From the NCBI GenBank assembly GCA_037445575.1, contig JBBIKH010000005.1:1-54689 (forward strand): DNA of 54,689 bases, given 5' to 3'. Below are positions 19,566-52,116 of the stretch, piece after piece. Under the pieces are notes generated by a model. That model was not told where the DNA came from. It worked only from the letters and a program-made list of their open reading frames with translations, and did no database searches. The DNA is from a bacterium. GTDB lineage: Bacteria > Zhuqueibacterota > Zhuqueibacteria > JANLFK01 > Oleimicrobiaceae. Both the position numbers and the translations under genes were made by a program. Each line of letters opens with the position of its first letter. Positions within the stretch are counted from its first letter, which is position 1.

Positions 19566-19578
19566 GATCGGGCTCCCT

Positions 19579-20550: not shown

Positions 20551-20561
20551 CGCTCCTCCGC

Positions 20562-22010: not shown

Positions 22011-22020
22011 CGGGCTCCTC

Positions 22021-29497: not shown

Positions 29498-29646
29498 ACG
29501 GGCAGTTCTAATGAGAGGGAGCTGCCGGACGTAGCCTATCTGTTTGGAAATTGGGATAGCAGGCGCTTGACAGAGGATGCACGTCCTCGATTTGTTGATC
29601 CCTGATGGCGCCGAGCGAATCAAGCATAACAGGAACGGCCGCTACG

Positions 29647-32154: not shown

Positions 32155-32333
32155 CCGCGGAATCTGTGGCACACGGATTGCAAATGCCGTTTTGTCGTGA
32201 TATGAACACGGCAGTTTGTTGTGCTGTTTATTCCACGCCAATGCTCTTGATAGGCGTTTCAACGACCTGGCCGTACCTCGAGACGCATCCAAACATGACT
32301 TACGGTGAATGAGCATAGACACGGGAAAGGCTA

Positions 32334-33695
32334 ATGTGCCCCAAATGTAACATCCTGATCACAGATGATGATGTTACCATCTGTCAAATTCTAAGGCGAA
32401 TCTTGGAAAGCGAAAACTATTAGATCAAAGAAGCTTACTCCGGCAATGAGGCGCTTTCGTTGTTTTCAGAAAATGAGTTCGACCTAGTGCTGCTGGATCT
32501 ACAACTCCCAGACAAAAACGGGATCGATGTTGCCCGGGAGATGATTGCCCAAAACCCGCTTGTCCCGATTGTGCTCATGTCTGCGTATGGAACTATTCCC
32601 AGGGCTGTTGAAGCGACGAGAATGGGCGTATATGATTTTTTGGAGAAGCCGCTGGACCGGGATCGCATTCTGGTCACGGTGCGCAATGCCCTAGTCCATG
32701 GTCAATTGCAACAGGAATTGATCCATTATAGACAGGACTCGTTAGCCCGCTATCAAATGGTCGGGCAATCGCCGGAAATCCAGCGGGTCTTTTCCCTCAT
32801 CGAAAAAATCGCGCCCACCAACTCGCCGGTGCTCATCCTTGGTGAAAACGGCGTCGGCAAGGAATTGGTCGCTCAGGCGATTCACAACCGCAGTCCCAGG
32901 GCGAATAAGCCACTGGTCAGCATCGATTGCGCCGCCATTCCGGATAATCTGCTGGAAAGCGAACTCTTTGGCCACACCAAGGGCGCATTTACCGGCGCAA
33001 GCATAGCAAAAAAGGGCCGCTTCGAGATGGCCGACGGTGGCACCCTGTTTCTCGATGAGGTGGGCGACATGAGTTTGTCAGCCCAGGCAAAGCTCCTGCG
33101 ATTCTTGGAGCGCGGCGAAATCCAGCGGGTCGGTTCATCCCAGGTCACCTCGGTCGATGTGCGGATTATCGCTGCCTCCAATAAGGACTTGAAGCAGATG
33201 GTCGCTGATAAGGCCTTCAGGGAAGACCTTTATTTTCGGTTAGAGATTTTCACCATCACCGTGCCTCCACTGCGGGAACGCCGCTCCGACATCCCGTTGC
33301 TCCTCGATTTCTTCCTTTCCTATTATGCCGAAAAAAATGCCACTGTCAAGCCCATCCTGACGCCGGCCGCCATCAAATATCTTTCGGGACTTGACTGGCC
33401 AGGCAACATCCGCCAGATGCGCAATTTTGTCGAACGTTTAATGATCATGAAACAAGGAGACCTGATCGATCTCAACGAAGTCGTCCCTCTGCTTGAAGCC
33501 AAAGAACCATCATCCCCCATTTCACCCAGCGAATCCAAACCTCTGCAGCAAGCTCGGGAAGATTTCGAGCGCGCGTACATTCTCAAAGTCCTCGAAGAAA
33601 ACGACTGGAAGGTCGCCAAAGCCGCAGAGGTGCTTCACATCGACCGGGCGAATTTGTATCGGAAGTTAAGGGGGTTGGGGATAACTGCGCAGTGA
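32334..33695 (+). pseudogene. sigma54-dependent (NtrC-family) response regulator interrupted by an in-frame TAG at 32421-32423
   Basis: ATG 32334 gives MCPKCNILITDDDVTICQILRRILESENY*IKEAYSGNEALSLFSENEFDLVLLDLQLPD... This is a receiver domain, followed by an AAA+ sigma54-interaction domain (GENGVGKE, GAFTGA, ESELFGH-type motifs) and a C-terminal Fis-type HTH. The ORF-track entry (32460) is the post-stop remainder. Confidence 0.8.
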
Positions 33696-34389: not shown

Positions 34390-36246
34390 ATGAAAACAAT
34401 TTTTATAATCATGAACGTAATTTGTTTTAGCATTACTTTCGCTAGTAGCTCTTATCATCAATCAAAAAATCAACCTCCTTCAGAAGTAAATAGAATAGAA
34501 ATAGAAAGGTTAAACCCTTTTGAAGGTTATCCTAAAACGGATACTATTTCGGTCAATTCTTTAAGGAAAACATCAGTTACTAACAAATCCGAGGGACAAA
34601 ATAAAAATGGACTAGAAACACAAAAAATATACCATGTTGAAGGTCATGCTGAAATAGATTCTGCAGCGTTCATTTCGTTAAAGAAAACACCAGTTATTGA
34701 TATATCTGAAGGACAAACTAAAGCTAAAGAAGAAACACAAAAAGTATACCATGTTGAAGGTCATGCTGAAATAGATTCTGCAGCGATTAATTCTTTGATG
34801 AAAAAATTAGATATAAACAAAATTGAAGGATATACTGAAGACAAAAAAGAAATGCAAAAGGTATTATATATTGAAGGTCAGTTGGAAGAGGAGGATTCAA
34901 GCAAACAAAAAAAAACAATAGACACAAATATAAAAAATTCAAATTTGAACACTGAAACCTATACGATTTACAGTGCAGGCTGGGATTCGGAGACGGATAT
35001 AGACGGGGATGGCTACACACGATACAGAAAGTTATATTTTGATGTGGACGTAAGCTCGGGGACACACACAGTATATGCCAAGATATATTACAAGCTATAC
35101 ACGTCAAGCAGTTATTCACTTTATCTTACCACCAATGACTTTACCATTACCGAGAATTCTTCCAGTGATGAATATTGGATTGCGGTGGGTGCTCCTAATC
35201 CAGAGCTATCTCATAATATTTATGATTTTGAAATTAGGGTATACAAATCAGGTAGCAGTACTGTACAGGCTACGAGGGGTCCGTCCGAAGATAGTGATTT
35301 GAATGATGAAAATTTTGAGACTACTTCAGAGGATGGCGGGGGTAGTAAAAAGCATAATTGTCTGTACGTTGTTAGCACAGCGGATCAAAATATAATTTCT
35401 ATTTTAAATGAATTGCAATTTCATGTTTCGACTTCTAATTCTATCCCTGCAGATTTAACTTCCTACGATTTGGTGATTTGCAGGGAATACTCAGCCTGTA
35501 CGCCAACCACTGCAACTTATGTTGGCAATTTTGTTAAGAATGGAGGTGGCGCCATTTTGATGCGAGGCACGCCTTCTACATTTGGTGGCGGGGGCTATAG
35601 CTGCAGCAATATTGCTGACTGGTTTGGAACGGGACAATATAGCAATGTGGGGGTGAGTGATGCCAGAGTTGTCATTGATTATCCGCTGGGAACCTCTCTG
35701 GTCAGCAATGATGTGATTGACCACTGCAGCGGATGGGGCGGCGCTGCTGTTAAGAATGTTGCAGCGGATGTAACCGTACTGGCAATGTGGGACTATGGCG
35801 ATGGCAATATCCACAGTTTCATCCGGTCGCATCAGAATGGTCGGGTGGCATTTTGGGCAGGCGATGTTTCTTATAACGAGAAAAACCGGGAACTGTTCAC
35901 AGCTCTATGTCGATGGGTCGCAAATGCAACCACCCTCATCGAGAACCAGAAATTGACCACGCTTCCAGAAGGCTACCACTTGTTTCAAAATTATCCCAAT
36001 CCTTTCAACCCGAACACCACCATCAGCTATGCCCTGCCCCAGCCAGCCCACGTACAAGTAGAGATTTTCGATGTGAACGGACAAGAGGTCAAGCGGCTGG
36101 TGGATCAAGTGTGCAGCGCCGGGGTTCACTCGGTGGTGTGGAATGGAACCGATGAGGCGCAGCGGAAGGTCCCGAGCGGGATTTACATCTGCCGTTTGAG
36201 CGCCGGGGAAGTGGTCTTGCAGCGGAAGTTGATATTGACAAAGTAA
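34390..36246 (+). CDS. secreted repeat protein with T9SS type-A C-terminal sorting domain (unknown function)
   Basis: AAGGAG RBS 8 nt upstream. Signal peptide MKTIFIIMNVICFSITFASS. Three 39-aa tandem repeats, a DIDGDGY-containing beta-rich region and a central alpha/beta-like region. CTD FQNYPNPFNPNTTISYALP...SGIYICRLSAGEVVLQRKLILTK. Confidence 0.8.
   Translation: MKTIFIIMNVICFSITFASSSYHQSKNQPPSEVNRIEIERLNPFEGYPKTDTISVNSLRKTSVTNKSEGQNKNGLETQKIYHVEGHAEIDSAAFISLKKTPVIDISEGQTKAKEETQKVYHVEGHAEIDSAAINSLMKKLDINKIEGYTEDKKEMQKVLYIEGQLEEEDSSKQKKTIDTNIKNSNLNTETYTIYSAGWDSETDIDGDGYTRYRKLYFDVDVSSGTHTVYAKIYYKLYTSSSYSLYLTTNDFTITENSSSDEYWIAVGAPNPELSHNIYDFEIRVYKSGSSTVQATRGPSEDSDLNDENFETTSEDGGGSKKHNCLYVVSTADQNIISILNELQFHVSTSNSIPADLTSYDLVICREYSACTPTTATYVGNFVKNGGGAILMRGTPSTFGGGGYSCSNIADWFGTGQYSNVGVSDARVVIDYPLGTSLVSNDVIDHCSGWGGAAVKNVAADVTVLAMWDYGDGNIHSFIRSHQNGRVAFWAGDVSYNEKNRELFTALCRWVANATTLIENQKLTTLPEGYHLFQNYPNPFNPNTTISYALPQPAHVQVEIFDVNGQEVKRLVDQVCSAGVHSVVWNGTDEAQRKVPSGIYICRLSAGEVVLQRKLILTK
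34558..34908 (+). repeat. 3 x 117-nt in-frame tandem repeat inside the cargo gene
   Basis: Units at 34558-34674, 34675-34791 and 34792-34908. A 39-nt core (taccatgttgaaggtcatgctgaaatagattctgcagcg) is identical at 34630-34668 and 34747-34785. The third unit is diverged. Confidence 0.9.
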
Positions 36247-36258
36247 AGGTACAGTAAA

Positions 36259-36305
36259 ATGATTGACCGCCACCACCCGCATATCGAGTGATGGCGGTCA
36301 ATCAT
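36259..36305. repeat. 14-bp perfect inverted repeat (hairpin) 13 nt after the cargo stop codon; possible bidirectional terminator
   Basis: ATGATTGACCGCCA-(19 nt)-TGGCGGTCAATCAT. There is no T-run on the plus side; TTTAC follows on the minus side. Confidence 0.4.
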
Positions 36306-36874
36306 GCTGTTGAAGCGACCGCAAAATCCAATCTGCTTACAATACCTACTTTCCATACCGCAATCTTCCGTCAAACAGCAAACCAAGCCAATGTTCTGTC
36401 CGTCGGATTCGTTACGGCGACAATGCGGTTTGCTGACACTCGAACATGGCCCAAATAGCTGTTGCCATCCGCCGGGAAGATTTACAAAACAATTATTGAC
36501 CCTGCTTTGACAACGTCGGATCTTGAGCAACCTTGTAAGCCTCAGTCCTTGTGAGGCTCTTAGCCAAAAGAACCACAACGGCAAAAACGGATTGCACGCT
36601 AAAGAACATCTTCGCTTAGCTTCACTCCGCTCGCAAAGACCATTCCCCAAAAGGGGCTGTTAGAGTGGACTGTCAGCTGTAACCCAAAAACCATTATCAC
36701 GTCATTTGGTGGTGGATCGTGGCGAAACATTGCATGGGCTCGCAAAGACATGGCGTTCATTGGCTGGTTATTCAACGGGTCGTGGCAGCGCGGCAAGGGA
36801 TGATGTCGGCCCGACACGGACAACGGTAGGGCCCTGACCAAGCTACGACCCCAGCATGTGCCTGGCATCCCCGT

Positions 36875-37130
36875 CATTTCTCGGGCGTTCCGGCCACCGC
36901 CAGGTGATCGCTCAGGCCCGGCAAAGACCACCCCCAGCCAGGACTCGTCGACTGCCAGCGCAAGGGCATGACTCGCTGCCAGCTCCCCAAGTTCGCCATG
37001 CCCCAGGTCGCTCCCTTGCTCCTGCCTCTACCCCCCGTGATCATCGACCACATTCCCCTGAGCCCACGCCAACTCCTCCAGCAAAACGACACCCCTCACC
37101 GCGGAAAGCTCTTGGCCCGCCACGCCAAGG
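36875..37130. repeat. right copy of the diverged ~260-nt direct repeat bracketing the low-GC insert
   Basis: See 29049-29310. This copy starts about 30 nt beyond the terminator of the TonB-dependent receptor gene. Confidence 0.6.
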
Positions 37131-37161
37131 CGGGGCATGGCCGACAGCCACGCCGAAGACG

Positions 37162-37190
37162 CAAAAGGGCTGACCTGTGGGGGTCAGCCC
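37162..37190 (-). terminator. rho-independent terminator of the 37215-39911 receptor gene
   Basis: Minus strand reads GGGCTGACC-cccaca-GGTCAGCCC-TTTTG, 25 nt after the stop codon. Confidence 0.65.
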
Positions 37191-37214
37191 TCTGTACCGC
37201 CAGGTTTTCGACGC

Positions 37215-39911: not shown

Positions 39912-40239
39912 ACGCTCCCTCCAAAGTTGGTTCATCCGCGCCAGCTGCCTCCTGATCCACCCCGGCCCAATTGTATCACTTCCCCGCTCAGAGGCTCGTA
40001 CATGCTGGACCGGCGCCCGTTGCGTCGGCCCCGCGCCTCTGCTTGGGTCAGGCGAAGCCCGCCTCCTCATGCGGTTGCGCGCTGCAGCCTGCGCTCCTCT
40101 TGCGCTCCGTCCCGACCCCCGCTGTTGTCAAAGAACAGAGCCGCGGTGGCACCATACCCTCGGCGCCGGCGCATTTCCCAGTCCACAAGGGGGACCATCG
40201 CCCCCTCGCTCACGACAAGGCCCTTCCAGAACCGCTGCA

Positions 40240-40268
40240 AATATACCGTTTCTCCATGAAGAAGTCAA
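40240..40268 (-). promoter_or_regulatory. sigma70 promoter TTGACT-N17-TATATT, ~320 nt upstream of the receptor start codon
   Basis: Minus strand reads cgcTTGACTtcttcatggagaaacggTATATTtgcagc. Confidence 0.55.
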
Positions 40269-40364
40269 GCGGAAATGTCCGTAGATGTAGACGCCAGGCG
40301 AGAAAAACGTTCAAGATATAGGAGATTGTCCTCCAGGCTCACCTCGGCTCCGCCAGAGGAGGGG

Positions 40365-41519
40365 CTAGGGCTGTTCAACCGGAAGGTCCGACTCCGAGAC
40401 CGAGAAACGATATCGTCGGAGGCAATGGCCTCCTGACTCTGCCACGTAGACCACATTGTCGGCGGACACACAGAGCCCCCTGGGCAGAGCTAACAGCTCC
40501 TGCCCCAGCCCCGTCTTGCCCAGCCCAGCCGGATGGCCGGCCTTGCTCCCCCGGTTGAAGAACTTGTAGACCCTGCCCGCCTGGGTATCGGCCACAAAGA
40601 TCGCACCGTCCGGGTCCAAGGCGACGTCATATGGGCCGGCAAAGCGATTGAGATCCATAATGGGATGTTGATACAGCGTGTACGCTGAGCTGTAGAAATC
40701 CCCCTGCTTCTTCAACTTTTGCACCAGAAAGTTACCGCCCAGCTGTGCGAAATAGATGTTGCCTTCGTTATCCACAGTGAGGCCACGCGGGTTGTCAACA
40801 GTCCCCGCACCGGAGCCGTAGGTTGCCACCTCGCCGTCGTAGACCCCCTTGAACGTGGGATGAACTCGCCCGTTGCGTAACCGGGCGCGGCCGCTCACCA
40901 CGATGCGCAGGCGGAGAATGCGGTTGTTGCCTTTGTCGGTCAAGAAGACCGTATTCGCGGAGCTCGGTCCAAAGGCGACGCCCTGAAAACTCGTCTTCCG
41001 TCCTTCGTCCACATAGAAAGGATGCACCCCAAGGAGCGAGTCGATGCGCGCGCGATCGCCACTGAATGGACCGGAGCCGACGGCAAGCGAATCCACGCCC
41101 TCTCTATTCAGGTACTGATTCCACACCCAAACCACCTTGCCGCCGTTGACGATGAGCAGGTTGAGTTTGCCATCGATGTCCAGAGCAAGTGGGCCCGTAA
41201 CCGGGGCTATGCGGTCCAACCCATCTTCCCGCGCCAGGCGGCCGGCGGCAGTGACCACGAACACGCGGTCATTGGCGCTATCGGCGACAAAGATGTAGCC
41301 GTCCTCGCCAATGGCTACGTCGGTGGGGACCATCGGCTCGCTTGCCAAATAGTCCAAGGCGGCCGCATCCCACACTGGGCTCACCGGAATGTAGGAGGTG
41401 TCGCTGGCCCCAAACGAGCTGGCAACCGAGGTCACGGCCGGCAGGGGCATTTTGCGCCCGCACCCGGCTGCGACCAGCAGCGCCATGAGACCAACACCAA
41501 GCAGGTAGCGCGGCTTCAC
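40365..41519 (-). CDS. NHL-repeat beta-propeller lipoprotein
   Basis: GTG 41519 (GAGGAAGG RBS, 10 nt after the upstream stop) gives VKPRYLLGVGLMALLVAAGC, which contains a lipobox. NHL-like blades YIFVADSANDRVFVV, VFLTDKGNNRILRL, IFVADTQAGRVYKF, VVYVAESGGHCLRRY. Confidence 0.75.
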   Translation of the reverse strand: MKPRYLLGVGLMALLVAAGCGRKMPLPAVTSVASSFGASDTSYIPVSPVWDAAALDYLASEPMVPTDVAIGEDGYIFVADSANDRVFVVTAAGRLAREDGLDRIAPVTGPLALDIDGKLNLLIVNGGKVVWVWNQYLNREGVDSLAVGSGPFSGDRARIDSLLGVHPFYVDEGRKTSFQGVAFGPSSANTVFLTDKGNNRILRLRIVVSGRARLRNGRVHPTFKGVYDGEVATYGSGAGTVDNPRGLTVDNEGNIYFAQLGGNFLVQKLKKQGDFYSSAYTLYQHPIMDLNRFAGPYDVALDPDGAIFVADTQAGRVYKFFNRGSKAGHPAGLGKTGLGQELLALPRGLCVSADNVVYVAESGGHCLRRYRFSVSESDLPVEQP

Positions 41520-41529
41520 GGACCCTTCC

Positions 41530-42531
41530 TCAGAACGCGAAACTGAAGGTGAATTGATGGGTTGCGCCAAGATGGGCAAAATCCTTGAATGCATAGTCCA
41601 GCACCACGCGCGCGCCGGCCACGGGTAACAGGAGCCCCCCGCCTACGGTCAAACGCTCCTCGTCAAAATTGATCCGGTAGCCTCCGCGCAGACGGAGCCG
41701 CTGCAAGACCTCAAGCTCGAGACCGAGCACTGCGTTTTCCACGTTGTCCATCGGGTGGTTGATCTGCATGGCCGCCACGAGGTTGTAGTGCTCGGAGCTG
41801 TAAAGGTCACCAGCCACCCCTACGCGGAAGGTGGTCGGGGGCGCGAACGCTTCGTAGGCTTGTTCCTCCCACTCGCCCTGGACGTTTCTCTTCAAGTAGG
41901 AGCCCCGCGCCTCCAAGTCGGGGCCAAAGTTGACCAAGCTCACCGCGAAGCGCACTTTTCGGTACCCAGTCCAGTAGAAGGTGCCCAGGTCGATCATCCA
42001 TCCACCCATGCGCACGTCGGCCAGCACCTCGTCCACGTACTTTATGGACAGGCCGAAGGAGAAGCGGTTGGTCATCTTGCGCGCGTAGGTGAGGGCAGCA
42101 AAGGTGTCCTGAAAGCGGAAGTACTCGCCGGTGCCCGTGGGGTAGTATTCGTTGGTCACCTCCATGTCTGCCATGTGCAGCATGCCGAGGCTCAGGCCCA
42201 AGGTGCCGAAGCGCGGCAGATGGTGAACATAGCCCAGGAACTCGTATTGGATGTCAGCGGGCCAGGCGATATGGCTAAGGGCAAGATTGTTGTTGGCCAC
42301 CTGCGCCGCCCCGGCCGGATTCCAGTAGAGGACAGTGGCATCTCCTGCCAGGGCAGCGCCCGCGCCGCTCATGGCCACTGCCTGCGCGCCGACTTCAATT
42401 TTCAGGAACGTAGCAGAGGCGGTCCCAATGCGCTGGCCGCCCAGGAGCTGGAACGCTGCTTGCGCCCGCAGCTGTCCACCCGAGCAGAGCAGCAGGGCAA
42501 CGGCCGCAATCCACAATCGCCTCTGTTTCAT
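41530..42531 (-). CDS. PorV-like (PorV/PorQ family) outer-membrane beta-barrel protein
   Basis: Signal peptide MKQRRLWIAAVALLLCSGGQLRAQA. SATFLKIEVGAQAVAMSGAGAALAGDATVLYWNPAGAA matches the PorV N-terminal signature. C-terminal ...HQFTFSFAF. Confidence 0.7.
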   Translation of the reverse strand: MKQRRLWIAAVALLLCSGGQLRAQAAFQLLGGQRIGTASATFLKIEVGAQAVAMSGAGAALAGDATVLYWNPAGAAQVANNNLALSHIAWPADIQYEFLGYVHHLPRFGTLGLSLGMLHMADMEVTNEYYPTGTGEYFRFQDTFAALTYARKMTNRFSFGLSIKYVDEVLADVRMGGWMIDLGTFYWTGYRKVRFAVSLVNFGPDLEARGSYLKRNVQGEWEEQAYEAFAPPTTFRVGVAGDLYSSEHYNLVAAMQINHPMDNVENAVLGLELEVLQRLRLRGGYRINFDEERLTVGGGLLLPVAGARVVLDYAFKDFAHLGATHQFTFSFAF

Positions 42532-42566
42532 CTTCTTGCTACACATGCACAGTTCCAGCGCAGCGG

Positions 42567-45314
42567 TCAGAACCTGATCCCGACCCCCCATCGCACCGTC
42601 CGCGGCCAGCGGTACTTGGACGGATCGTAGATGGGATTGGGGCTTGGATTGATGTCGCGCGTGTAGCTCTTGGTCAAGATATCGCCGGGCCGGTACTCTC
42701 GCCCGGTGTACGGATTGATGATACGCGGAATCAACGCATTCAGGGCGTTCTCGATCTCAACCTGAAGATTCACCTCCAGGCCCTTGAGGCGGAAGTACTT
42801 GTAGCCACGCAGATCAAGCTGGTGCCAGGTGGGAGCAAGATTCGCGTAAGGGTGAGCTGTATCATAGATCTCACGCTCAAGATCAATGAGCCGAGTGTAG
42901 CGCTTGCCCGATTCCAATTCCCAGTGGGCGTTGATCCCCCATTTTTCCGGCAGACGCCAGCCGAATACTCTGAACCCCTGCTTCTCGCCCACGTGCAGAT
43001 TCAAGTCAAGCGTCAGGCGGATTGGCCTGTCCCACTCCAAAAAGTTCTCACGCAGCGGCTTCTCCGCCAACCTGCCCGCCTCCACCAGCAAATTGTCACT
43101 CGGCTTTGAGCTCTTCCCTTTACTCACCGCGTAGGTGAAGTTCAGGGTCCCAGTCAGGTAGCGAGCGTACCGTTGCCGCAGCCACAACTCGACCCCTTTC
43201 GAGCGGGCATAGTCCATGTTGAAGTACATCAGGTAACTGATGTTTCCCAGCCGCGGATTCTCCATCTGTACGCGCTCGGCCGTGGGATAGTCAAACATGT
43301 CCTTGTAGTAGGCCTTAAACTCCGCCACCAGGTTCTCGGTGAACTTGTGTTTGATTCCCAGCTCGTATGCCACCGTAGTCGTCGGGTTCAGGTTGGGGTT
43401 TCCGAACAACTGGTACGTAGCAGGCGAGGTTGACTTGAGCTTGGCGTACACGTACTGCCCTTGCGGGCGCTGCGAAAAGTGCCCGTAGTGAAAGTAGAGC
43501 ACATCGCGATCGGTCACCGGGTGGGAGATCCCCACGCGCGGGCTCAGATGCCCTTTGCCGCGCATGCCCAAGAAGGCAAAGGTGTCCTCATAAAATTTTT
43601 TCCGCGCCGCGCTCGAAATAATCACCGTCTCCGGGTCGTCGATCGCGTCTTGGACAAACTTGCCGGGGAACCAATAGTCGTACCGCAGCCCGACGTTGAC
43701 AATCATCCCTTCATAGGTGATGCGGTCCTGAAGATAAAAAGCACCAGCAGTGGAGTAGACGCGGTAAATGTCGTAGCTGCGGCCGTAACCGCTCTCGCTG
43801 ATCACCCAAGGATCAACGATGTCCACCACCTGCATGGTGGTATATTCGACTTCGAAACCGCCCTTCACCTGATGCTTGGGGTCAATCTGGCTGGTGAGAT
43901 GGCCCTTCAAGGTCCACGTGTCACTGAAGTAGTCGAACCACTGGCCATAGTCGCCATGGTCATAGAAACCATCACCGCGACGGATAACAATATCCCCGCT
44001 TGAGCCTGGCACATAGCGGACTGGCTCCAAGTCCAACTGCTCCACGTACTGGGACCAATGCTTGTTCTGCACCGCACTGTGCGTGGAGGTGAAAAAGTTC
44101 CCCGCCGTCAGCTCGTAGAAGGTCCGAGCTGATAACGTGTGCATCCACGTGGCGTTGGCCAGGATGCTCTCCGAAGTGAATGTGGGGTAATGATCAAGGT
44201 GCTTGCTGAACTCGTACGGGAAGTAGCGCCGGGAAATCACATAACGCCGGAAAAAGCCCTGGTTGATGCTCAGGGAGCGGTCATACGACAAGGAGAACTT
44301 TTGGTTGGGATTGACCTTCCAGGAGAGCTTGGCCAGCACGTGCCAATCGTTTTCCTCTCGCGGCGCAAACGGCTCCAGTCCGGTGCGACTCGGATACAGT
44401 CGTGACGCCTTCGGCAGGTAGGTATCAGAGATGTTCCCGTAGCCGGACAAAAAGAGGCTCACTGTTCCTGGGAAGCGCAACCCTATGGCCGGGAGGAGGT
44501 GTCTGGTGAGCAACTCCGGTCCGCCAAGATTGAACTCCACCACCTGCGTATTGTAACTCCGGAAGAGCCCAAAATTGGGTCGATCGGTCTTGACGGCAAG
44601 ACCGCCGCTGTAGGAGTCGCCACCCTCTTTGGTCACCACATCGATCACCCCCGACATGGCCTGGCCGTACTCGGCGTTAAAGCCACCGGTGATGACTTTC
44701 AGCTCCTTGATGGCATCGGCATTGACATACAAGGTGTTCCCATACCCGGAGAGGGGGTCTTTGATGGAGATGCCGTCGACGATGTACAGGCTCTCATCGG
44801 CGCGGCCACCCCGAATGTGGATCTCGTTGTCGGCCTTTACCACGCCCGCTTGCTGGGTGACAATGTCCTGCACGTTCTCCACGATGCGCTGGCGTATGTC
44901 CTCGGAACTAAAATGCACTTCTGATGCCGTCAGGTCCACCTGCAGCAAGGGCCGCTCCCCGACCACGACAATCTCCTGGCCGAACGCCAAAACTGACTGT
45001 TCCAGCTCAAAGTCGAGCACGACCTGTTGGCCAGGGGCCACCTTGACGCCGGTGCGCAGCTGGATCTTGTAGCCGATCATTGACGCCTGAATGTCGTATT
45101 GGCCAGGGCTGACCCGCTCGATAAGGTAGCGACCCTTTTCATCGGTGGCCGCACCCATGTAGGTCCCCTTCACCACCACATTCACCCCTGGCAGCGGGGC
45201 GCGCGTCTCCTTATCCACGACGGTGCCGACAATACTGCCCTTGCTGCGCTGCTGGGCAGCCAGCGCTGGGCAGCACAGGAGCAACACCGCCACTATGAAG
45301 CCCTTAGTCTTCAT
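42567..45314 (-). CDS. TonB-dependent receptor with carboxypeptidase-regulatory-like N-terminal domain
   Basis: GSIVGTVVDKETRAPLPGVNVVVKGT..., plug domain (IHIRGGRADESLYIVDGISIKDP), barrel ending in ...WGVGIRF. The ATG overlaps the upstream stop (ATGA). Confidence 0.9.
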   Translation of the reverse strand: MKTKGFIVAVLLLCCPALAAQQRSKGSIVGTVVDKETRAPLPGVNVVVKGTYMGAATDEKGRYLIERVSPGQYDIQASMIGYKIQLRTGVKVAPGQQVVLDFELEQSVLAFGQEIVVVGERPLLQVDLTASEVHFSSEDIRQRIVENVQDIVTQQAGVVKADNEIHIRGGRADESLYIVDGISIKDPLSGYGNTLYVNADAIKELKVITGGFNAEYGQAMSGVIDVVTKEGGDSYSGGLAVKTDRPNFGLFRSYNTQVVEFNLGGPELLTRHLLPAIGLRFPGTVSLFLSGYGNISDTYLPKASRLYPSRTGLEPFAPREENDWHVLAKLSWKVNPNQKFSLSYDRSLSINQGFFRRYVISRRYFPYEFSKHLDHYPTFTSESILANATWMHTLSARTFYELTAGNFFTSTHSAVQNKHWSQYVEQLDLEPVRYVPGSSGDIVIRRGDGFYDHGDYGQWFDYFSDTWTLKGHLTSQIDPKHQVKGGFEVEYTTMQVVDIVDPWVISESGYGRSYDIYRVYSTAGAFYLQDRITYEGMIVNVGLRYDYWFPGKFVQDAIDDPETVIISSAARKKFYEDTFAFLGMRGKGHLSPRVGISHPVTDRDVLYFHYGHFSQRPQGQYVYAKLKSTSPATYQLFGNPNLNPTTTVAYELGIKHKFTENLVAEFKAYYKDMFDYPTAERVQMENPRLGNISYLMYFNMDYARSKGVELWLRQRYARYLTGTLNFTYAVSKGKSSKPSDNLLVEAGRLAEKPLRENFLEWDRPIRLTLDLNLHVGEKQGFRVFGWRLPEKWGINAHWELESGKRYTRLIDLEREIYDTAHPYANLAPTWHQLDLRGYKYFRLKGLEVNLQVEIENALNALIPRIINPYTGREYRPGDILTKSYTRDINPSPNPIYDPSKYRWPRTVRWGVGIRF

Positions 45315-46822
45315 AGACCAAACTCTTCCCGCAAAATGTAGCGGAGGACCTCCTCGGCATTGCCGAAGCCATCGCAGTAATTGAAGGGCAGCGAAAAGTA
45401 GATGGAGCGCCCCTGCCCGATGCGGTAGCGGATACCCACCACCGGCGAGCCCTTGTAGGGCACGGCCACGCTTGCCGTGGAATCGGGCTCCATCCGCCAG
45501 ACCACCTCCGCACTCGGGCCCGGAACCAGCGCCGACACCCGATTGCCGATCAACTTGCCTACCTTCAGGGTCAACGCCGAGTCCCGCTCACTGTTGGTGA
45601 ACGAGGCCAGCACCCGCACCCCCGCCAGCAGTCGCCCACCCGGGTTAAGACGGAACACCGAGTCGATATCGGTGAAGGTCCAGGCAGTATCCGGCACTTC
45701 CTCGTTGGCATTGGTGATGAATACCTTCCCCCCGGCAGCGATGTACTGCGTGAGACTCAGGCCGGCTTGTGCCAGATTCGGCCGCCCCAGGTGCGAGAAC
45801 CAGATCACTGCCTTGAAGTAGCTCAAGTTGGCTTTGATGTCGGCAGTGGCGTAAGGGAGGCTGTTCTGGGGATTGATGACCGGCGTTCGCCACGTGCCGA
45901 TCTCCCACACGCTGTAGCCCCCTTCGCCAACAATGTTGCGCAGCAGCTGCTCATAGTAGCTCTGAACCTGATAGAGCGTCTGGTCCTGGGCAAAGTCATT
46001 CACCAACAGCACCTCACCCCGCGGTTCCTTCACCACCCAGGTGTTGGGCGTCTGAGGATCTGTCGGGTCAGGAAAAGAGATCACCTTGCTCTGCGCCCCG
46101 GCAATATCCTCAGCCTTGACGAAGAAACGATGACTACCCGGCGACAGCCCGGTGAGCGTCACGCTCCGCGCCGAACCGGGGAGCTCTTGCCACGTGCTGG
46201 TGTCGTCGATGGCGTAAAGTATCTTGACCACCGTTTCGTCGCCATCGGGGTCGCGCACATCCCACATGAAGGTGCGAGTGGGAAAGGTGTATGCCGTGAC
46301 GTTGGGGTTCCCTGGCGGCGCAGGGGGGTTGCTCCGATACCGAAACGCAATATCCGGCGGCGAATTGAACACCGGAAAGACCATGCTGGCCGGTGTGGGG
46401 TCCACGGCACTGTCATCGTCCACTGCCCACACGCGGAAGGTGAAACTGGCAAAGCGCGCGCGAATGGGGAGGTAGAAGGTATCGAACTCGGCAGTGGTCC
46501 ATTGCCGCTCCGACTGGAAATCCCACTGGATGTAATATCCCACCACCTCACCGTCGGCGTCCTCTCCCCACCAGTGCAGCACCTGCCGGCTGGCTGTGGT
46601 ATCCAGACCCACAATGACGGTGTCTGCCCCTTGTGGTGTCGGGATGAGCACCGTGTCTGGCTTGGTCGACAGGAACAGGAATGTCTCAGGCGCCATGTTG
46701 CCAAGGGGGCGGGATTGGCGCTCCTTGTGGAAGGGGTTCCTGTCGCAGCTGGCCACCGACAGAACGACAGCGAACCCTGCGCCGAGCAGCATCTGCCGCA
46801 CGATGTGAGGTAAGGACCTCAT
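45311..46822 (-). CDS. hypothetical lipoprotein (two Ig-like domains + C-terminal alpha/beta domain)
   Basis: ATG 46822 gives MRSLPHIVRQMLLGAGFAVVLSVASC, which contains a lipobox. HWWGEDADGEVVGYYIQWD and WDVRDPDGDETVVKILYAIDD Ig-like segments. The C-terminal region EVLLVNDFA...AVIWFSH...GGKVFITN suggests a ThuA/GATase1-like fold (inference). Confidence 0.65.
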   Translation of the reverse strand: MRSLPHIVRQMLLGAGFAVVLSVASCDRNPFHKERQSRPLGNMAPETFLFLSTKPDTVLIPTPQGADTVIVGLDTTASRQVLHWWGEDADGEVVGYYIQWDFQSERQWTTAEFDTFYLPIRARFASFTFRVWAVDDDSAVDPTPASMVFPVFNSPPDIAFRYRSNPPAPPGNPNVTAYTFPTRTFMWDVRDPDGDETVVKILYAIDDTSTWQELPGSARSVTLTGLSPGSHRFFVKAEDIAGAQSKVISFPDPTDPQTPNTWVVKEPRGEVLLVNDFAQDQTLYQVQSYYEQLLRNIVGEGGYSVWEIGTWRTPVINPQNSLPYATADIKANLSYFKAVIWFSHLGRPNLAQAGLSLTQYIAAGGKVFITNANEEVPDTAWTFTDIDSVFRLNPGGRLLAGVRVLASFTNSERDSALTLKVGKLIGNRVSALVPGPSAEVVWRMEPDSTASVAVPYKGSPVVGIRYRIGQGRSIYFSLPFNYCDGFGNAEEVLRYILREEFGL

Positions 46823-46890
46823 CCGGAACCCACCTCGCCTCGGCTCATCGGGAGCAACACCCTCATTGCCTGACACCAGGAGGTGCAAAG

Positions 46891-49572
46891 CTACCGAACC
46901 AGCACCATTTTCCGGGCCGCGATAAAGTCACCGGCCTTGATCCGGTAGATGTACACCCCCGCGGGGACTGCCTGCCCTCGTTCATCGGTTCCATCCCAAG
47001 GCAGGACATGACGACCCGGCGGCAGCGCCTCGTCCGCCACCGTCTTCACCTTCTGGCCGAGCAGGTTGTATACCACCACGGTCACCTGCTGCGCCGAAGG
47101 TATCTCGAAGTAGATCTTGGTGCCAGGATTGAAGGGATTGGGGAAATTCTGCTCTAAGCGGTACGTGTACACCGGAGGCACAAATCCGGGGTCGACACCC
47201 ACTGTCTGCCCAAAGTCGTTGGCATCCCGCACTTCGATCTTGTAGGTGCCAAAGCTGTAAATGAAGACGCCTTGGATACGATCCACCTTCTCCCCTGGGC
47301 GGATGGTGTCGCCAAAGGCCACCAGGTAGCCACCGCTCTGGTTGACGTAGAACTGATTGTTGGCGTCCTGGTCGCGCGCCAGCATAAAGTCCCCGTCCAC
47401 CAGGCAGGGGCCGCTGCCGTCGTCAAAGGTCACATCGTAGCGGTTCACACTCATCAACGTTGCATTCCTGATGCGCACCAGCACCCCTTCATAGGATTCC
47501 ACATCAGGGCTGGCCGCCGACAGCGTCCCTGTCGCCACCTCCACGGGATTGATCACATTGCCAGAGGAGGCCACCTCGTACGCGTCCGCCAGAAGCACAG
47601 TGTTGTTGTCCCATTTGTAGTGCCAGTCGGGGTTGTAGTCGGTCACTTTGCCGGTGACGGCCACCATGTCACCCCGCTTGAGGGTATTGGGGAGCCCAAA
47701 CACAAGGATGCCGCTCCACGGTTGCTCAGCGTCCTGAAGGGCATACGCCTTGAAGGTGCGGTTTGCAGAGCTGTCGGTGGTCACCACACCGGTGAGGGTT
47801 ACGGTGTAGCCCTCAAAGGGGGAGTCGGCAACAGCCCAAGGGGTGTATTGCACGTCCGCGATGCGCAGCAGACCATCGCGCACCACGTAGGAGAAGTGTT
47901 GACGGGCAGTATCAGAAGGGGTAAGGCTCTTCTGGCCAAGATTGTCCGTGGCCTCGATGAAGAAGCTGACAAAGCTGCCGTTTGGTTGCGGAGGTATCTG
48001 GCCCCGGTAGGTGTTGCCACTGGGGTTGGTCATGGTCACTCTCGTGTACCCGCCGGCATTCCCCTTGGCCAAGGGGTAGCCGCTGTCCACCCGATACAGG
48101 AGGGCCACCTCCGTGACCACTAGGTTGCTCAGGACATTGGCAGAGACCGAAACGGCGTCTGAGGATCGCGGGGCCGCCACGTTGCGCACTACATCGGTCA
48201 CCACCGGCGGAGCGCTCCCCCACTTGATGTCACTCATATAAAGGGGCTCAAGTTTGTAGGCCGTGCTATCGGTGTAATAGCCGTAATGATGGTACACCCA
48301 GCCACGAATGGAATCCGCCTGGGCGCCAACCGGGGGCCGTGGGTGCGCTCCGTAGTAGGTGTTCAGGCTGTCGGAGTCATCGTCCACCAATACGGCCCCA
48401 GACCCGTCGTCGACAGCAAACAGCTCATACTGCGGATTGTTCTTTGTGACCCTGACGTTTTTGACATAGACCATGCAATTGCCCCACTGCTCAGCTGTGA
48501 CCGGAAGACGTAGATCTCCGGTCCTCACGTAGTCTGGGGGTGGGAGGGGTTGGCCAATGCCCACGATATCAATGGGGCTGGTGATCCACAACTCGGTCAT
48601 GTTGCTCGGCCCGGTACGATATTCACCGATGTAGCCTGAGACCACAATCAGATCCCCCTCGAACAGATTGGGGTAAGCTGTGGAATCGGGATGATAGGAC
48701 AAGATCGCGCTCCACGGCCCGCCTTCGATCTCGCTCATGATGAATTTGACGCCGGCGCCGGCGTAGCTAAGCCCCGTCGGCATGGTCACCACGCCGCGCA
48801 CGGTTACCGTATCGCCCACCGCGTATGAGGTATCAGAGTACGTGTCCGTTGGCGCCAACAAGAGATCAGAGTTGCGCACCTGCTGTACGCGCTGGAGCCT
48901 GGTAAATCTGCCCCCCTCGACGATGTCCCACGCAAGACGGGGAGCAATGCTGAAAGCTCCTGAACCATAAAGGACGATGCCGGTCAACGACCGTATCGGT
49001 GCTCCCACCACTGGCGTGTAAAAGTACTTCGCTCTGGTGTCGATCAGGATGGCCCCGCTGCCGTCGTCGACCTTCCAGTTCTTGTAGGTGCCTATGTCTG
49101 TTTGCACCACGGTCACATTGGTGACTCTTACAAGGCACCCTTCGTAGGCTTCCGCGGCAACCTGGCCCGTGGTCACCTCCAAAGGGGGCGGCAGCTTTCT
49201 GTGCGTAGCGTGCCTGGTGAAGCTCGTCACGTCCTTTATCTGCGTCTGCCCGTAGTACTCATTGACGGTCCCGGTCACTGTGATGCTGTCCCCTTCAGCC
49301 ACCAAGGTCGCATTGTAGTGCACCTGAATCCCCGACCATGGTTCTGCAGCGTCTTGCATAAAGAAATAGGCGTTGGAGATGCCGCCGTTGTTGGGGTTAT
49401 CTCCGCGATGCTCGGCAGTGACGATGCCTGTCACTGTGACCACCTGGCCGTTCAAGGGCGACGCGCCCGTAGGATCGGTTGTGTACTGAATATCGCGGAT
49501 TCTGGTCTGGCCGTTCACCAATGTGGCCACCATCAGAGCTCCCGTGACGAGCGCCCACGCGATGCTTCTCAT
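46891..49572 (-). CDS. large secreted protein with three ~250-aa repeated beta-rich modules and a T9SS type-A C-terminal sorting domain
   Basis: Signal peptide. Modules begin IRDIQYTTDP..GQVVTVTGIVT, RVQQVRNSD..GDTVTVRGVVT, RIADVQYTPW..GYTVTLTGVVT. Each continues with PWSGI..., ...YEG.LVRV.N..., DDGSG. CTD LEQNFPNPFNPGTKIYFEIP...AGVYIYRIKAGDFIAARKMVLVR. Confidence 0.75.
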   Translation of the reverse strand: MRSIAWALVTGALMVATLVNGQTRIRDIQYTTDPTGASPLNGQVVTVTGIVTAEHRGDNPNNGGISNAYFFMQDAAEPWSGIQVHYNATLVAEGDSITVTGTVNEYYGQTQIKDVTSFTRHATHRKLPPPLEVTTGQVAAEAYEGCLVRVTNVTVVQTDIGTYKNWKVDDGSGAILIDTRAKYFYTPVVGAPIRSLTGIVLYGSGAFSIAPRLAWDIVEGGRFTRLQRVQQVRNSDLLLAPTDTYSDTSYAVGDTVTVRGVVTMPTGLSYAGAGVKFIMSEIEGGPWSAILSYHPDSTAYPNLFEGDLIVVSGYIGEYRTGPSNMTELWITSPIDIVGIGQPLPPPDYVRTGDLRLPVTAEQWGNCMVYVKNVRVTKNNPQYELFAVDDGSGAVLVDDDSDSLNTYYGAHPRPPVGAQADSIRGWVYHHYGYYTDSTAYKLEPLYMSDIKWGSAPPVVTDVVRNVAAPRSSDAVSVSANVLSNLVVTEVALLYRVDSGYPLAKGNAGGYTRVTMTNPSGNTYRGQIPPQPNGSFVSFFIEATDNLGQKSLTPSDTARQHFSYVVRDGLLRIADVQYTPWAVADSPFEGYTVTLTGVVTTDSSANRTFKAYALQDAEQPWSGILVFGLPNTLKRGDMVAVTGKVTDYNPDWHYKWDNNTVLLADAYEVASSGNVINPVEVATGTLSAASPDVESYEGVLVRIRNATLMSVNRYDVTFDDGSGPCLVDGDFMLARDQDANNQFYVNQSGGYLVAFGDTIRPGEKVDRIQGVFIYSFGTYKIEVRDANDFGQTVGVDPGFVPPVYTYRLEQNFPNPFNPGTKIYFEIPSAQQVTVVVYNLLGQKVKTVADEALPPGRHVLPWDGTDERGQAVPAGVYIYRIKAGDFIAARKMVLVR

Positions 49573-49603
49573 GTTCCGTTGCCTCCTCTGTTTCTTCCCC
49601 CGT

Positions 49604-51784
49604 TCATTTGATCACCAAGAACTTGCCCACAAAGATCTTGCCGCTCTTTTTGTCCTCCACCGTGTACAGATACAGCCCCGAGGCGATGGCCTGGTCATTG
49701 CGGGTGATCAGGTCCCACGCATGGAGTCCCCCAGGAAACGCCACTTGCTTGCCGCCTGTAGTGACCGCCACGCGGGCCACATCTTCGCCAGCGTAGTGCC
49801 GCCCGTCGTGGTGAATCTCGTCCACCAGATCGCCCGCCAGGGTGTAGATGCGAATCACCGCCTCCAGTGGCAAGTTCGCGAACCAGATCAATCGCTGGCG
49901 CTCACCGCTGCCGTCCCACAGCGCGCTGCCTCGGTACGGATTGGGGTAGACGTAGACCTTGAGTTCATCCTCGCTGGGTGGAGTGCCCGGGATGACATGG
50001 GTCAGGTTCTCATACAGGGAGCTTTCCAAGCTTGGCAGGTTGTTGGCAGGGTTCCCTCGGTCGAAGGCTGTCACGCTGTAGAAGTACCGGTCAGGCCACC
50101 CATCGTGCAGCATTTCGTTGACAAAACGATAGCGATACTGTCTGCCGTCAATCAACGTGTCGTGGCGGATAAGGTCCAATCCCGTGTCGTAACCGAGATT
50201 GTTCTTAAGATCGAACTGGGCAAGCAGGGAGAACTCCTCTTGGCTACCACGAGTCTTCGGCGACCCGTAAATCCGATACCCTTCAAAGTCGATCTCCCTG
50301 GTGATAGGATCTTCGGTCAGCTCCGGAAGATCGTCCCAGTACAGCTCCACGCGCCCGCGGCCTGGAACCACCAGCAGGCGCGGCGACGGAGGCGGCGAGG
50401 GCAAGATGTAGCGATCGAGCCTACCGTTATGCGCGTATATCCCCCGTTGCGGATTGTGGTACACGTCCTCATCGATATCCAAATGACCATCGCCATCAAG
50501 GTCCTCGCCGGGGTCCAAGATGCCATTGCCATTGAGGTCTTCGTCCACCACGTCCAAGCGGCCATCGCCATCCACGTCCTCGCCGTTGTAGGCGATCTGC
50601 GCCCAGTCGGAGTTCAGGCGGAGGTTCTTACGCCGCTCGGGACTGTCCGAGTCCCCTGGTCCCCAAAACCCGCACACCACGGCAAACACCGCATTGAGGG
50701 AGTCCCCAGGGGCAAGGTCCCCCAACGGACCCATTGACAGCAGGATCATCCAGCTGTCGGGCTGATCGGGCACCGGCGGGGGAGGCGTAGTGGCCATCTT
50801 CTGGTAGCGCTCTTCATCGTTGCGCGGCATGAAATAGTCGGGGAACTGGACGTTGGTGGCGGTGGCCCATTTCCACTGGTTATAGTTGACCTTGTACGTC
50901 GCTCGTGGCACAGAGGCGCCCAAGGCGCGAATACCGAGATAACTCTCCGCATAGCCGTTGTCGCCATCGGCATCGTACTGGTACGCCATGTTGTACTCCT
51001 CGTCGAAACCGTTGAGGTTATCGTACCAGGTAAAGCCGCCGCCTGGCTCGTAACGGCTAGTGTAGTTCATGTTGGCCACCGAGGCATCCACCCACAATCC
51101 CACGTGCACCTTCTCAATGGGATAGCGCGAGACGTTCTTGATGGTGTAGTTGAGAATCACAAAGGCGTCGGCAAACGAATAGTTCCAGGCGTAGGACTCC
51201 AAGTGGACGTCGATCCCCAAGGGGGTGTGCTCAAGGATCTCGATCTGCGTGCCCGGCACCCGGGTGTTGCGATCGGTAAAGTCGCACAAAAAGTCCTGGT
51301 GCGAGACGGCCGCAGGGTGAAAGTGGGGCGAAGTAATGATCGTGGAGCGGACGCGAACGGTGTCTGCCTCGTCAGGGGAGGTGGTGAACTCAAAGCCGGA
51401 TTCCCCATAGGTGAACACCCCATCCACGATAGCCGTGGACACCAGAGTTTTGTGTTCCCCTTGTGCACCGCCGATCCCGCCCACCCAGAGGCCGGCGTAG
51501 GAAAAGTGCTCGATGCGCTCCTTGTCCAACCGGGAGTGGAGTTTGTATTGGCAGGAGGGCTGCTCCTTGAGGGCCACCAAGTACCCTTGCCCCAGAACCC
51601 CGTAGTTGGTCACCGTGAGCCCCAGGTTACCCACGTTGTGAAAGTGGCGGTAGTCATCAATGGAGGGCTTGCCAACGGGCGAGGGGAGCTGTGGGGAGCG
51701 GGAAGGGAACTGCCCAGACGCCGGCATGACGGCCAGCGCCATAAAGATGCTCGTCCACAAGCAAGTGTACAACGTTCGCTTCAT
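49604..51784 (-). CDS. secreted protein with thrombospondin-type-3-like Ca-binding repeats and a T9SS-type C-terminal domain
   Basis: ATG 51784 gives MKRTLYTCLWTSIFMALAVMPASGQ. DVDGDGRLDVVDEDLNGNGILDPGEDLDGDGHLDIDED repeats. CTD VYVYPNPYRGS...ASGLYLYTVEDKKSGKIFVGKFLVIK. Confidence 0.7.
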   Translation of the reverse strand: MKRTLYTCLWTSIFMALAVMPASGQFPSRSPQLPSPVGKPSIDDYRHFHNVGNLGLTVTNYGVLGQGYLVALKEQPSCQYKLHSRLDKERIEHFSYAGLWVGGIGGAQGEHKTLVSTAIVDGVFTYGESGFEFTTSPDEADTVRVRSTIITSPHFHPAAVSHQDFLCDFTDRNTRVPGTQIEILEHTPLGIDVHLESYAWNYSFADAFVILNYTIKNVSRYPIEKVHVGLWVDASVANMNYTSRYEPGGGFTWYDNLNGFDEEYNMAYQYDADGDNGYAESYLGIRALGASVPRATYKVNYNQWKWATATNVQFPDYFMPRNDEERYQKMATTPPPPVPDQPDSWMILLSMGPLGDLAPGDSLNAVFAVVCGFWGPGDSDSPERRKNLRLNSDWAQIAYNGEDVDGDGRLDVVDEDLNGNGILDPGEDLDGDGHLDIDEDVYHNPQRGIYAHNGRLDRYILPSPPPSPRLLVVPGRGRVELYWDDLPELTEDPITREIDFEGYRIYGSPKTRGSQEEFSLLAQFDLKNNLGYDTGLDLIRHDTLIDGRQYRYRFVNEMLHDGWPDRYFYSVTAFDRGNPANNLPSLESSLYENLTHVIPGTPPSEDELKVYVYPNPYRGSALWDGSGERQRLIWFANLPLEAVIRIYTLAGDLVDEIHHDGRHYAGEDVARVAVTTGGKQVAFPGGLHAWDLITRNDQAIASGLYLYTVEDKKSGKIFVGKFLVIK

Positions 51785-51890
51785 GCGCTCGCCGGTGGAG
51801 GGTTCAGTACTCTTCCCGCAGGCCGGCAAGGCAGATGCTCATGGGGTCCCGCCTTGCCTCTCGACGGGGCAGCCTGCTGCTGCGCGTGCT

Positions 51891-51919
51891 AATATAGGAC
51901 TTGTTGGGCCGCAAGTCAA
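51891..51919 (-). promoter_or_regulatory. sigma70 promoter TTGACT-N17-TATATT for the six-gene 51784-to-40365 operon
   Basis: Minus strand reads gtgcTTGACTtgcggcccaacaagtccTATATTagcacg. The hexamers are identical to those of the 40240-40268 promoter, and the leader is about 100 nt. Confidence 0.55.
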
Positions 51920-52116
51920 GCACATTTTTTGGGCCCTGCAAAAACTCTACCCCCGGTCGCGGGGAGCCTGGCACCGTTCACCACCCGACATGACGCCGCG
52001 GCACTCCCCCGGACGAATGCCCCTTGCGAGTACTCAGGCAATCATTCGCCTGATGGGGTCCGACGAGGAATTCCCGGACAGGCGCCTGCTACACGCACCG
52101 TCAGCCCGAACGGCCC

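Follow-up and report, generated by a model that had tools for sequence, protein, structure and literature searches.

A widespread six-gene operon of type IX secretion cargos and a TonB-dependent transporter, and its possible role in nucleic-acid capture

Gene content and layout of the locus

The window analysed here is a stretch of 54,689 nucleotides (positions 1 to 54,689 of contig JBBIKH010000005.1, GenBank assembly GCA_037445575.1) from a bacterium of the Oleimicrobiaceae (Zhuqueibacterota), and the subject of this report is a six-gene operon on its minus strand, g1 to g6, together with the receptor gene g7 that follows it. The organism falls in candidate division KSB1, and its best matches, 94% identical, carry the label Candidatus Oleimicrobiaceae. 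The operon had been proposed in an earlier reading made from the letters of the DNA (hereafter the sequence-only reading). All six of its minus-strand open reading frames (ORFs) were re-found at the positions and with the gaps given there; together they span 40365-51784, and the junctions from g1 to g6 measure, in order, 31, 68, -4 (an ATGA overlap), 35, and 10 nt. Start codons of g1-g7 were picked as the ATG or GTG that gave a proper signal peptide. The genes and the two sites 5' of them are as follows.

49604..51784, minus strand: g1, secreted protein of 726 aa counted from an ATG, with a signal peptide
46891..49572, minus strand: g2, 893 aa; matches TIGR04183 and OB-fold models
45311..46822, minus strand: g3, 503-aa lipoprotein; its stop overlaps the g4 start (ATGA)
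42567..45314, minus strand: g4, 915-aa TonB-dependent transporter with CarboxypepD_reg, Plug, and barrel
41530..42531, minus strand: g5, 333-aa outer-membrane barrel; PorV/PorQ family NF033709 at 176 bits (cutoff 90)
40365..41519, minus strand: g6, 384-aa NHL-repeat lipoprotein with a GTG start; NHL at 71.8 bits
37215..39911, minus strand: g7, 898-aa TonB-dependent transporter; start taken at the methionine of MSRRVV, as in the 94%-identical protein P0241
51891..51919, minus strand: promoter-like site TTGACT-17-TATATT, 5' of g1
40240..40268, minus strand: second promoter-like site, 5' of g7, with the same hexamers as the g1 site

A promoter-like site was read again at 51891-51919, where a promoter had been placed, and the site ahead of g7 is identical to it. 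Promoter-like sites numbered four in the region against 4.6 expected by chance; the case for the two listed ones is therefore made by their position and not by their number, since the minus strand has just two intergenic regions of any size and each of them holds one of the sites. A hairpin with a T-run at 51950-51965 terminates the rho gene upstream of the g1 site, and a weak hairpin (40321-40334) lies 3' of g6. No known riboswitch was found in the leader of either g1 or g7. The g7 leader is about 330 nt long from the promoter-like site to the probable start codon (39912-40239), and that start is uncertain, two upstream in-frame ATGs being present at 40070 and 39935.

Conservation of the operon in other phyla

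A profile scan with g3, using one genome per species, returned relatives in at least 567 genomes. Taxa were recorded for the 80 best g3 matches, and gene order was examined in 83 related loci in all; ORFs were called in every locus with a crude ORF caller and labelled by BLASTP. The 80 best loci come from KSB1, Calditrichota, Marinimicrobia/Neomarinimicrobiota, and Fidelibacterota; one of the 80 is labelled Cloacimonetes, and a few labels of metagenome-assembled genomes appear unreliable. With relatives spread over four phyla, the operon is an ancient, self-contained unit, far wider in distribution than the lineage-specific system suggested by the sequence-only reading.

The synteny comparison proposed along with that reading clearly favoured the operon: the order g1-g2-g3-g4-g5-g6 was constant over the 83 loci, down to 35% g3 identity, while the flanks varied. 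Median junctions across related loci were 24, 66, -4, -1, and -1 nt, with the -4 nt value for g3-g4 taken over 73 loci. All six genes were seen in 36 of the 48 loci that were uncut on both sides of the module. The 12 exceptions comprised four antisense-ORF miscalls in GC-rich DNA, six loci with less than 1 kb of contig on one side, one locus without g5 only, and one lone partial copy of g3 at a contig start. In essentially all related loci of sufficient length the genes are thus collinear, their junctions tight or overlapping, as expected of the single unit that had been proposed. Among public sequencing runs no RNA run was found to contain this sequence, and a single DNA run contained 5% of its words. 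As a separate observation, a Peptidase_C69 gene (440 aa, cytoplasmic-looking) and an aminotransferase-like gene lie directly upstream of g1 in seven loci among L056-L068 (Marinimicrobia).

The OB-fold protein g2

The protein g2 carries a type I signal peptide, three OB-fold modules in tandem (approximately residues 22-225, 226-455, and 566-800), a single Ig-like domain in the middle, and a type IX secretion system (T9SS) sorting domain of type A (TIGR04183, 38.7 bits, cutoff 23); Por_Secre_tail was matched by all 51 of the g2 orthologues scanned. Modules 1 and 3 individually match the OB fold of the ExeM/NucH nucleases at about 1e-11, and the whole protein matches positions 1-116 of the 546 positions of the ExeM/NucH model NF033681 at 78 bits (cutoff 300, E 6e-22). 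In the window protein, PF01336 (OB-fold) scored 31.5 bits and DUF5689 scored 28.6 bits, the latter equal to its cutoff; among the orthologues PF01336 was matched by 42/51 and DUF5689 by 27/51, with a best E value of 2.8e-17. The middle domain of 17/51 orthologues matched CBM_56, mostly weakly, and lamin-tail domains were added in 4/51. Domain scans of g2 gave no EEP catalytic domain and no other catalytic domain, and the protein looks like a binder and not an enzyme. Variants of the architecture were also seen: some Marinimicrobia orthologues (L056, L066) have an N-terminal c-type-cytochrome-like domain, and others (L073, L074, L083) have one or two lamin-tail domains and a length of 1160-1530 aa.

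The receptor g7 and its relation to DdbC

The ddbABCDEF genes of Bacteroides thetaiotaomicron are required for depletion of exogenous DNA, and among their products are nucleases, DdbC, which is a TonB-dependent transporter, and DdbD, which belongs to DUF5689 (PMC12478041). Four DdbC sequences (Table S3 of bioRxiv 10.1101/2025.03.18.642099) were used as references and compared by BLASTP. The g7 protein aligned with DdbC Pv2 at 31.8% identity over 921 aa (E 4e-138), followed by Pv1 (E 2e-116), Bt2 (E 3e-42), and Bt1 (E 8e-28), and can be assigned as a full-length DdbC homologue. Its identity to DdbC of the P. vulgatus type, 30-32%, is above the roughly 25% shared by the two accepted Bacteroidales types (bioRxiv 10.1101/2025.03.18.642099). 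The P. vulgatus ddb locus holds DdbC, a DUF5017 lipoprotein, and an EEP-family nuclease. The sequence-only reading had mentioned g7 as an aside; its place after g6 was upheld, a promoter-like site was seen ahead of it, and it is the sole gene of the set with a characterised homologue.

In the window g7 has g6 upstream and a 0.97-kb gap downstream with no ORF of at least 160 aa, and there is no counterpart beside it of the lipoprotein partner of DdbC. The gap (36247-37214) also gave no Rfam match, and it is bounded by a perfect 20-bp hairpin (36260-36304), probably a two-way terminator shared by g7 and the convergent low-GC gene described below. In 9 further loci a g7/DdbC-like gene adjoins the six genes, in two arrangements. 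At a Calditrichota locus (L085, 12792-20756), a g7 homologue is followed by genes for a phosphodiesterase, an M28 peptidase, a 5'-3' exonuclease, an SNase, and a metallophosphatase, a stretch that may be a nucleic-acid degradation neighbourhood.

The transporter, barrel, and NHL lipoprotein

The domain calls made earlier for g4 (CarboxypepD_reg receptor), g5 (PorV-like barrel), and g6 (NHL lipoprotein) were borne out by domain models and, for g6, by a lipobox-like signal peptide (...VAAGC) read from the sequence. The g5 protein belongs to the PorV/PorQ family at the score listed above and falls below the equivalog cutoffs for PorQ (75.8/220), PorV (50.8/250), and PorV2 (50.1/325). The transporter g4 scored 71.9 bits with the SusC-type model TIGR04056 (cutoff 368). 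A DdbC assignment for g4 was ruled out, as only its N-terminal 230 residues match DdbC (E about 1e-12). Heme uptake was likewise rejected because the TonB-hemin match of g4 (94/317 bits) is far below cutoff and heme or cytochrome neighbours are confined to one lineage.

In Zixibacteria, a full-length g4 homologue (33% identity over 913 aa) stands directly ahead of an NHL protein resembling g6 (27% identity over 366 aa) at L090 10001-13782, where g1, g2, g3, and g5 are all absent. Because this pair is kept there without the other four genes, the transporter and the NHL lipoprotein are probably the older core of the operon.

The conserved proteins g1 and g3

Besides its signal peptide, g1 has a core rich in beta structure, an Asp-rich DxDGDG stretch, an Fn3-like domain, and a C-terminal domain of the T9SS type, and about 100 of its residues are invariant across the four phyla. 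It had been described as a TSP3-repeat T9SS protein; the Asp-rich stretch was located at approximately residues 400-440, and no TSP3 or other Pfam model was matched, the scan of window g1 and 47 orthologues giving zero matches. The T9SS tail is backed solely by a match of the C-terminus to the PorZ C-terminal domain (E 1.3e-6), a PNP[FY] motif in 56/57 orthologues (PNPY in the window protein), and a modelled C-terminal beta-sandwich. The lipoprotein g3 has a lipobox-like signal peptide (...LSVASC) read from the sequence; no solved structural relative of it was found by sequence search, and it has no similarity to the nearby low-GC, T9SS-tailed protein (34390-36246).

Structure prediction and Foldseek, which the sequence-only reading had recommended, agreed with its Ig/alpha-beta description of g3: the model (pLDDT 82) combines a pair of Fn3-like domains with an alpha/beta domain and matched Fn3 tandems and non-catalytic domains of GH42 beta-galactosidases. 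For g1 (pLDDT 62) the yield was confined to low-TM matches, the core resembling the N-terminal beta-sandwich of GH116/GH94 enzymes at a TM score of about 0.2. The glycoside hydrolase-like matches of both proteins are to non-catalytic domains at TM scores of 0.2-0.3, and those of g1, low-TM non-catalytic sandwiches obtained from a model of modest confidence, were dropped as a functional clue. Sequence and profile searches of g1-g4 against solved structures gave only an FlgD-like tail, a weak Fn3 match, and a generic receptor N-terminus. On present annotation g1 and g3 represent deeply conserved families that match no known one.

Genes flanking the module in related loci

Flank proteins left unlabelled by BLASTP were clustered, and the count of nucleases was filtered for a true catalytic domain. 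The commonest neighbour was a family of T9SS-tailed proteins. A nuclease with an EEP domain (in places with lamin-tail) and a T9SS tail was found in 12 of the 83 related loci, at most about 100 nt from the module in 8 of the 12, and its position and orientation vary between KSB1-like, Calditrichia, and Marinimicrobia/Fidelibacterota genomes. Where at least 5 kb of flank was available, the EEP nuclease was present in 10/49 loci, a DdbC-like receptor in 7/49, and one or the other in 17/49. Flanking genes related to carbohydrates (sulfatases, GH20, 3-keto-disaccharide hydrolases) occurred in some relatives and were not recurrent, and no catalytic glycoside hydrolase, lyase, or peptidase was found inside the module in the 83 loci.

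NUDIX hydrolases of two unrelated families recur a few kb downstream of the module in two phyla (KSB1-like loci L014, L016, L018, L020, L021, L027, and L038; Marinimicrobia-like loci L062, L067, L072, L076, L077, L080, L082, and L083). They could reflect a link to nucleotide metabolism or chance.

Proposed function: capture and import of nucleic acid

The interpretation preferred here, with a probability of roughly 0.45, is that the operon serves to capture nucleic acid from outside on the surface of the cell and to feed the polymer or its fragments into TonB-dependent import; either nutrition or natural transformation could be its purpose. Nucleic acid is proposed as the substrate because g2 has nuclease-type OB folds, g7 is homologous to DdbC, and EEP nucleases and DdbC-like genes recur beside the module. 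Also in favour are the matches of g2 orthologues to DUF5689, the family of DdbD and of a Riemerella anatipestifer protein required for natural transformation, the joint presence of DdbC and an EEP-family nuclease in the P. vulgatus ddb locus, and the nuclease-rich surroundings of one Calditrichota g7 homologue. The sequence-only reading had compared the locus with a polysaccharide-utilisation locus and had left its substrate and the roles of most of its proteins unassigned. The capture-and-import logic fits the parts that were identified, and the leads on substrate now point to nucleic acid, with g1 and g3 still outside any family.

In the proposed mechanism, g1 and g2 would be exported by the T9SS through their C-terminal domains, and the g5 barrel would act as a dedicated shuttle or anchor retaining them on the cell. 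The three OB-fold modules of g2 would bind DNA or RNA, and a secreted EEP-family nuclease, whose gene adjoins the module in some relatives and presumably lies elsewhere in the present genome, would cut the polymer. The products would then enter through g4, which would work together with two lipoproteins, the translationally coupled g3 and the NHL protein g6, and the DdbC-type receptor g7 may be an additional import route; g7 and the secreted nuclease would be frequent accessory partners. Starting from the gene content, domains, deep synteny, g7-DdbC homology, and recurrent neighbours observed directly, we infer a physical complex, anchoring by g5, the identity of the substrate, and the direction in which transport runs. 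A bolder version appears doubtful: an undescribed machine of four major uncultured phyla, Marinimicrobia/SAR406 among them, physically joining the T9SS to TonB-dependent import, in which g5 would park g2 as a DNA catcher and g1 as an enzyme-like partner beside the transporter, forming the main entry route for DNA through the outer membrane, as food or for transformation.

Several observations weigh against nucleic-acid capture. The DUF5689 score of the window g2 lies exactly at the Pfam cutoff, and the transporter inside the operon is not the DdbC homologue. OB folds and beta-sandwiches bind glycans too, and weak hints of carbohydrate folds exist in the models of g1 and g3 and in the middle domain of g2. 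About two thirds of the 49 assessable relatives have neither marker neighbour within 5 kb. In the window no nuclease domain was found by Pfam on the large ORFs, and the flank proteins of related loci, including the EEP nucleases, match the window only through their T9SS tails. Homologues of g7 away from the module stood in six contexts, one nuclease-rich and five unrelated. In the 80 P. vulgatus-type Bacteroidales ddb loci no g2-like module was present, and the DUF5017 partner lipoprotein of P. vulgatus has no sequence similarity to g2, g3, or g6. Finally, conservation over at least 567 species genomes (for g3) and four phyla is unusual for a nutrient locus and leaves room for a housekeeping function in the envelope or for one in competence.

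The same hardware could serve a different ligand (glycan, peptide, other polymer, or cofactor) that is captured at the surface and imported. We consider this unlikely. It would account for the likeness of the g1 core to the GH116/GH94 beta-sandwich and of the C-terminal half of g3 to GH42 domains, for the CBM_56 matches of g2 orthologues, and for the sulfatase, GH20, and 3-keto-disaccharide hydrolase flanks, and g4 is a generic TonB-dependent transporter that would suit it. However, the structural matches are to non-catalytic domains at low TM scores, no catalytic glycoside hydrolase, lyase, or peptidase lies within the module in any of the 83 loci, the carbohydrate flanks do not recur, unlike the nuclease and the DdbC-like gene, which are found beside the module most often, and the OB modules of g2 match nuclease-type and DUF5689 models and not carbohydrate-binding ones. 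Quite improbable is a housekeeping envelope machine in place of a nutrient system, for example an Oar-like TonB-dependent exporter or a complex linked to the T9SS for surface assembly or attachment; g1 and g2 would then be structural components of the surface. The invariant gene order and the invariant residues of g1 are what such a machine would show, the set of two uncleaved-type cargos and one PorV/PorQ-like barrel is reminiscent of PorU-PorV and PorZ-PorQ, the module in Fidelibacterota adjoins a second PorV-like gene cluster, and protein secretion in Myxococcus is reported to require a CarboxypepD_reg transporter (PMC6434023). Yet neither a PorU peptidase nor a PorZ propeller domain was seen in g1 or g2, g5 is under the PorV and PorQ equivalog cutoffs, and the nuclease-type OB folds and the nuclease and DdbC neighbours are left unexplained. 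The Zixibacteria, which retain only the g4-g6 pair, also speak against it and imply that the transporter core predates the T9SS parts.

Uptake of nucleic acid specifically for natural transformation, with the operon as the outer-membrane DNA entry route of these phyla, a role proposed for a protein pair in Riemerella, and without a nutritional role, is judged very unlikely. In Riemerella anatipestifer natural transformation cannot do without the DUF5689 protein RA0C_RS04920 and a CarboxypepD_reg outer-membrane protein, forming the pair RA0C_RS04915/RA0C_RS04920 (PMC8459023). Among the DdbC types, g7 is nearest to that of P. vulgatus, which bears CarboxypepD_reg, and the Riemerella protein is likened to it by domain alone. 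Conservation of a housekeeping type would also be less expected of a substrate-specific locus than of a competence apparatus. Against this, no ComEC, ComEA, or DprA was seen in the window or the flanks, the adjacent nucleases and the phosphodiesterase, SNase, and metallophosphatase genes at one locus suggest degradation, and ddb-bearing Bacteroidales are not known as competent.

Other features of the window

A second cluster of a cargo and a barrel lies on the minus strand at 18654-22382.

20562-22382, minus strand: 606-aa BNR/Sortilin-like protein with a T9SS tail
19579-20565, minus strand: 328-aa protein without a family
18654-19565, minus strand: second PorV-like barrel, 24% identical to g5 (E 2e-10)

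In Fidelibacterota (locus L076), homologues of the 328-aa protein, of the second barrel, and of the Polysacc_deac_2 gene found in the window at 26816-27964 stand directly upstream of the nuclease and the six-gene module. On the plus strand of the window, positions 34390-36246 encode a 618-aa T9SS-tailed protein with internal repeats YHVEGHAEIDSAA; the gene has 36.5% GC compared with roughly 60% for the genome and looks like a recent acquisition. Upstream of it, the genes for a sigma-54 regulator and an FG-GAP histidine kinase (29605-33695) are also GC-poor, at about 49%. Rfam gave one match above threshold in the window, to a tRNA gene (8219-8292, minus strand).

Significance

In sediments and the deep ocean, large amounts of phosphorus, nitrogen, and carbon are present as extracellular DNA, whose consumers are unclear. 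The phyla that bear the operon are abundant in these habitats and are almost wholly uncultured. If nucleic-acid capture and import is correct, the operon would be a genomic marker of DNA scavenging or competence in these groups, the DdbC system, which was reported from gut Bacteroidales in 2025, would extend to other phyla of the same superphylum, and T9SS-anchored binders in place of SusD-like lipoproteins would constitute a new architecture for surface uptake. Whatever the substrate, g1 and g3, in their fixed six-gene context, are good targets for structural and biochemical work.

Comparison with known systems

No description of the six-gene operon was found in literature searches, and it was compared with the systems nearest to it in content. 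The ddb loci share several features with the locus: g7 is of the DdbC family, g2 has OB folds that appear to be of the DUF5689 type, EEP nucleases are linked to the module in relatives, and, as in ddb, the operon logic resembles that of a polysaccharide-utilisation locus. The differences are considerable. The OB-fold protein of the operon is a three-module T9SS cargo encoded four genes from g7 and not a lipoprotein beside DdbC; the operon has its own, unrelated transporter g4 and the invariant g1, g3, g5, and g6, to which nothing in ddb corresponds; g7 and the nuclease accompany the module only facultatively; and the carriers are KSB1, Calditrichota, Marinimicrobia, and Fidelibacterota and not Bacteroidota. 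The invariant core consists of two T9SS cargos, a PorV/PorQ-like barrel, an unrelated transporter, and two lipoproteins, with two of the six proteins lacking an annotated family. Because this core differs, the operon is classed outside the ddb family, with which it shares one homologous protein, g7, and apparently one domain family, present in g2.

With the ExeM/NucH nucleases (NF033681), g2 shares the OB fold and, in the few orthologues that have it, the lamin-tail, which are the non-catalytic domains of those enzymes; unlike them it has no EEP catalytic domain, and its model score is far under the cutoff. SusC/SusD polysaccharide-utilisation loci likewise combine a surface binder, a TonB-dependent transporter, and lipoproteins in one operon. 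They differ from the present operon in that no SusD was matched in the seven proteins g1-g7 and no carbohydrate-active enzyme was found by Pfam or NCBIfam, the absence of SusD and of a recognisable glycoside hydrolase having been correctly read from the sequence at the outset; in addition, g4 is not of the SusC type, and the binders are predicted to be anchored through the T9SS and not by lipid. Linkage of cargo genes to dedicated T9SS shuttle or anchor barrels has precedent (PMC12618676; reportedly also PMC9143113), and the operon resembles PorU-PorV, PorZ-PorQ, and type B cargos with PorP/SprF-like proteins in that its cargo genes are linked to a barrel gene of the PorV/PorQ family. Unlike those pairs, its barrel g5 is not a PorV or PorQ equivalog, and cargo and barrel are embedded together in the operon of a TonB-dependent transporter.

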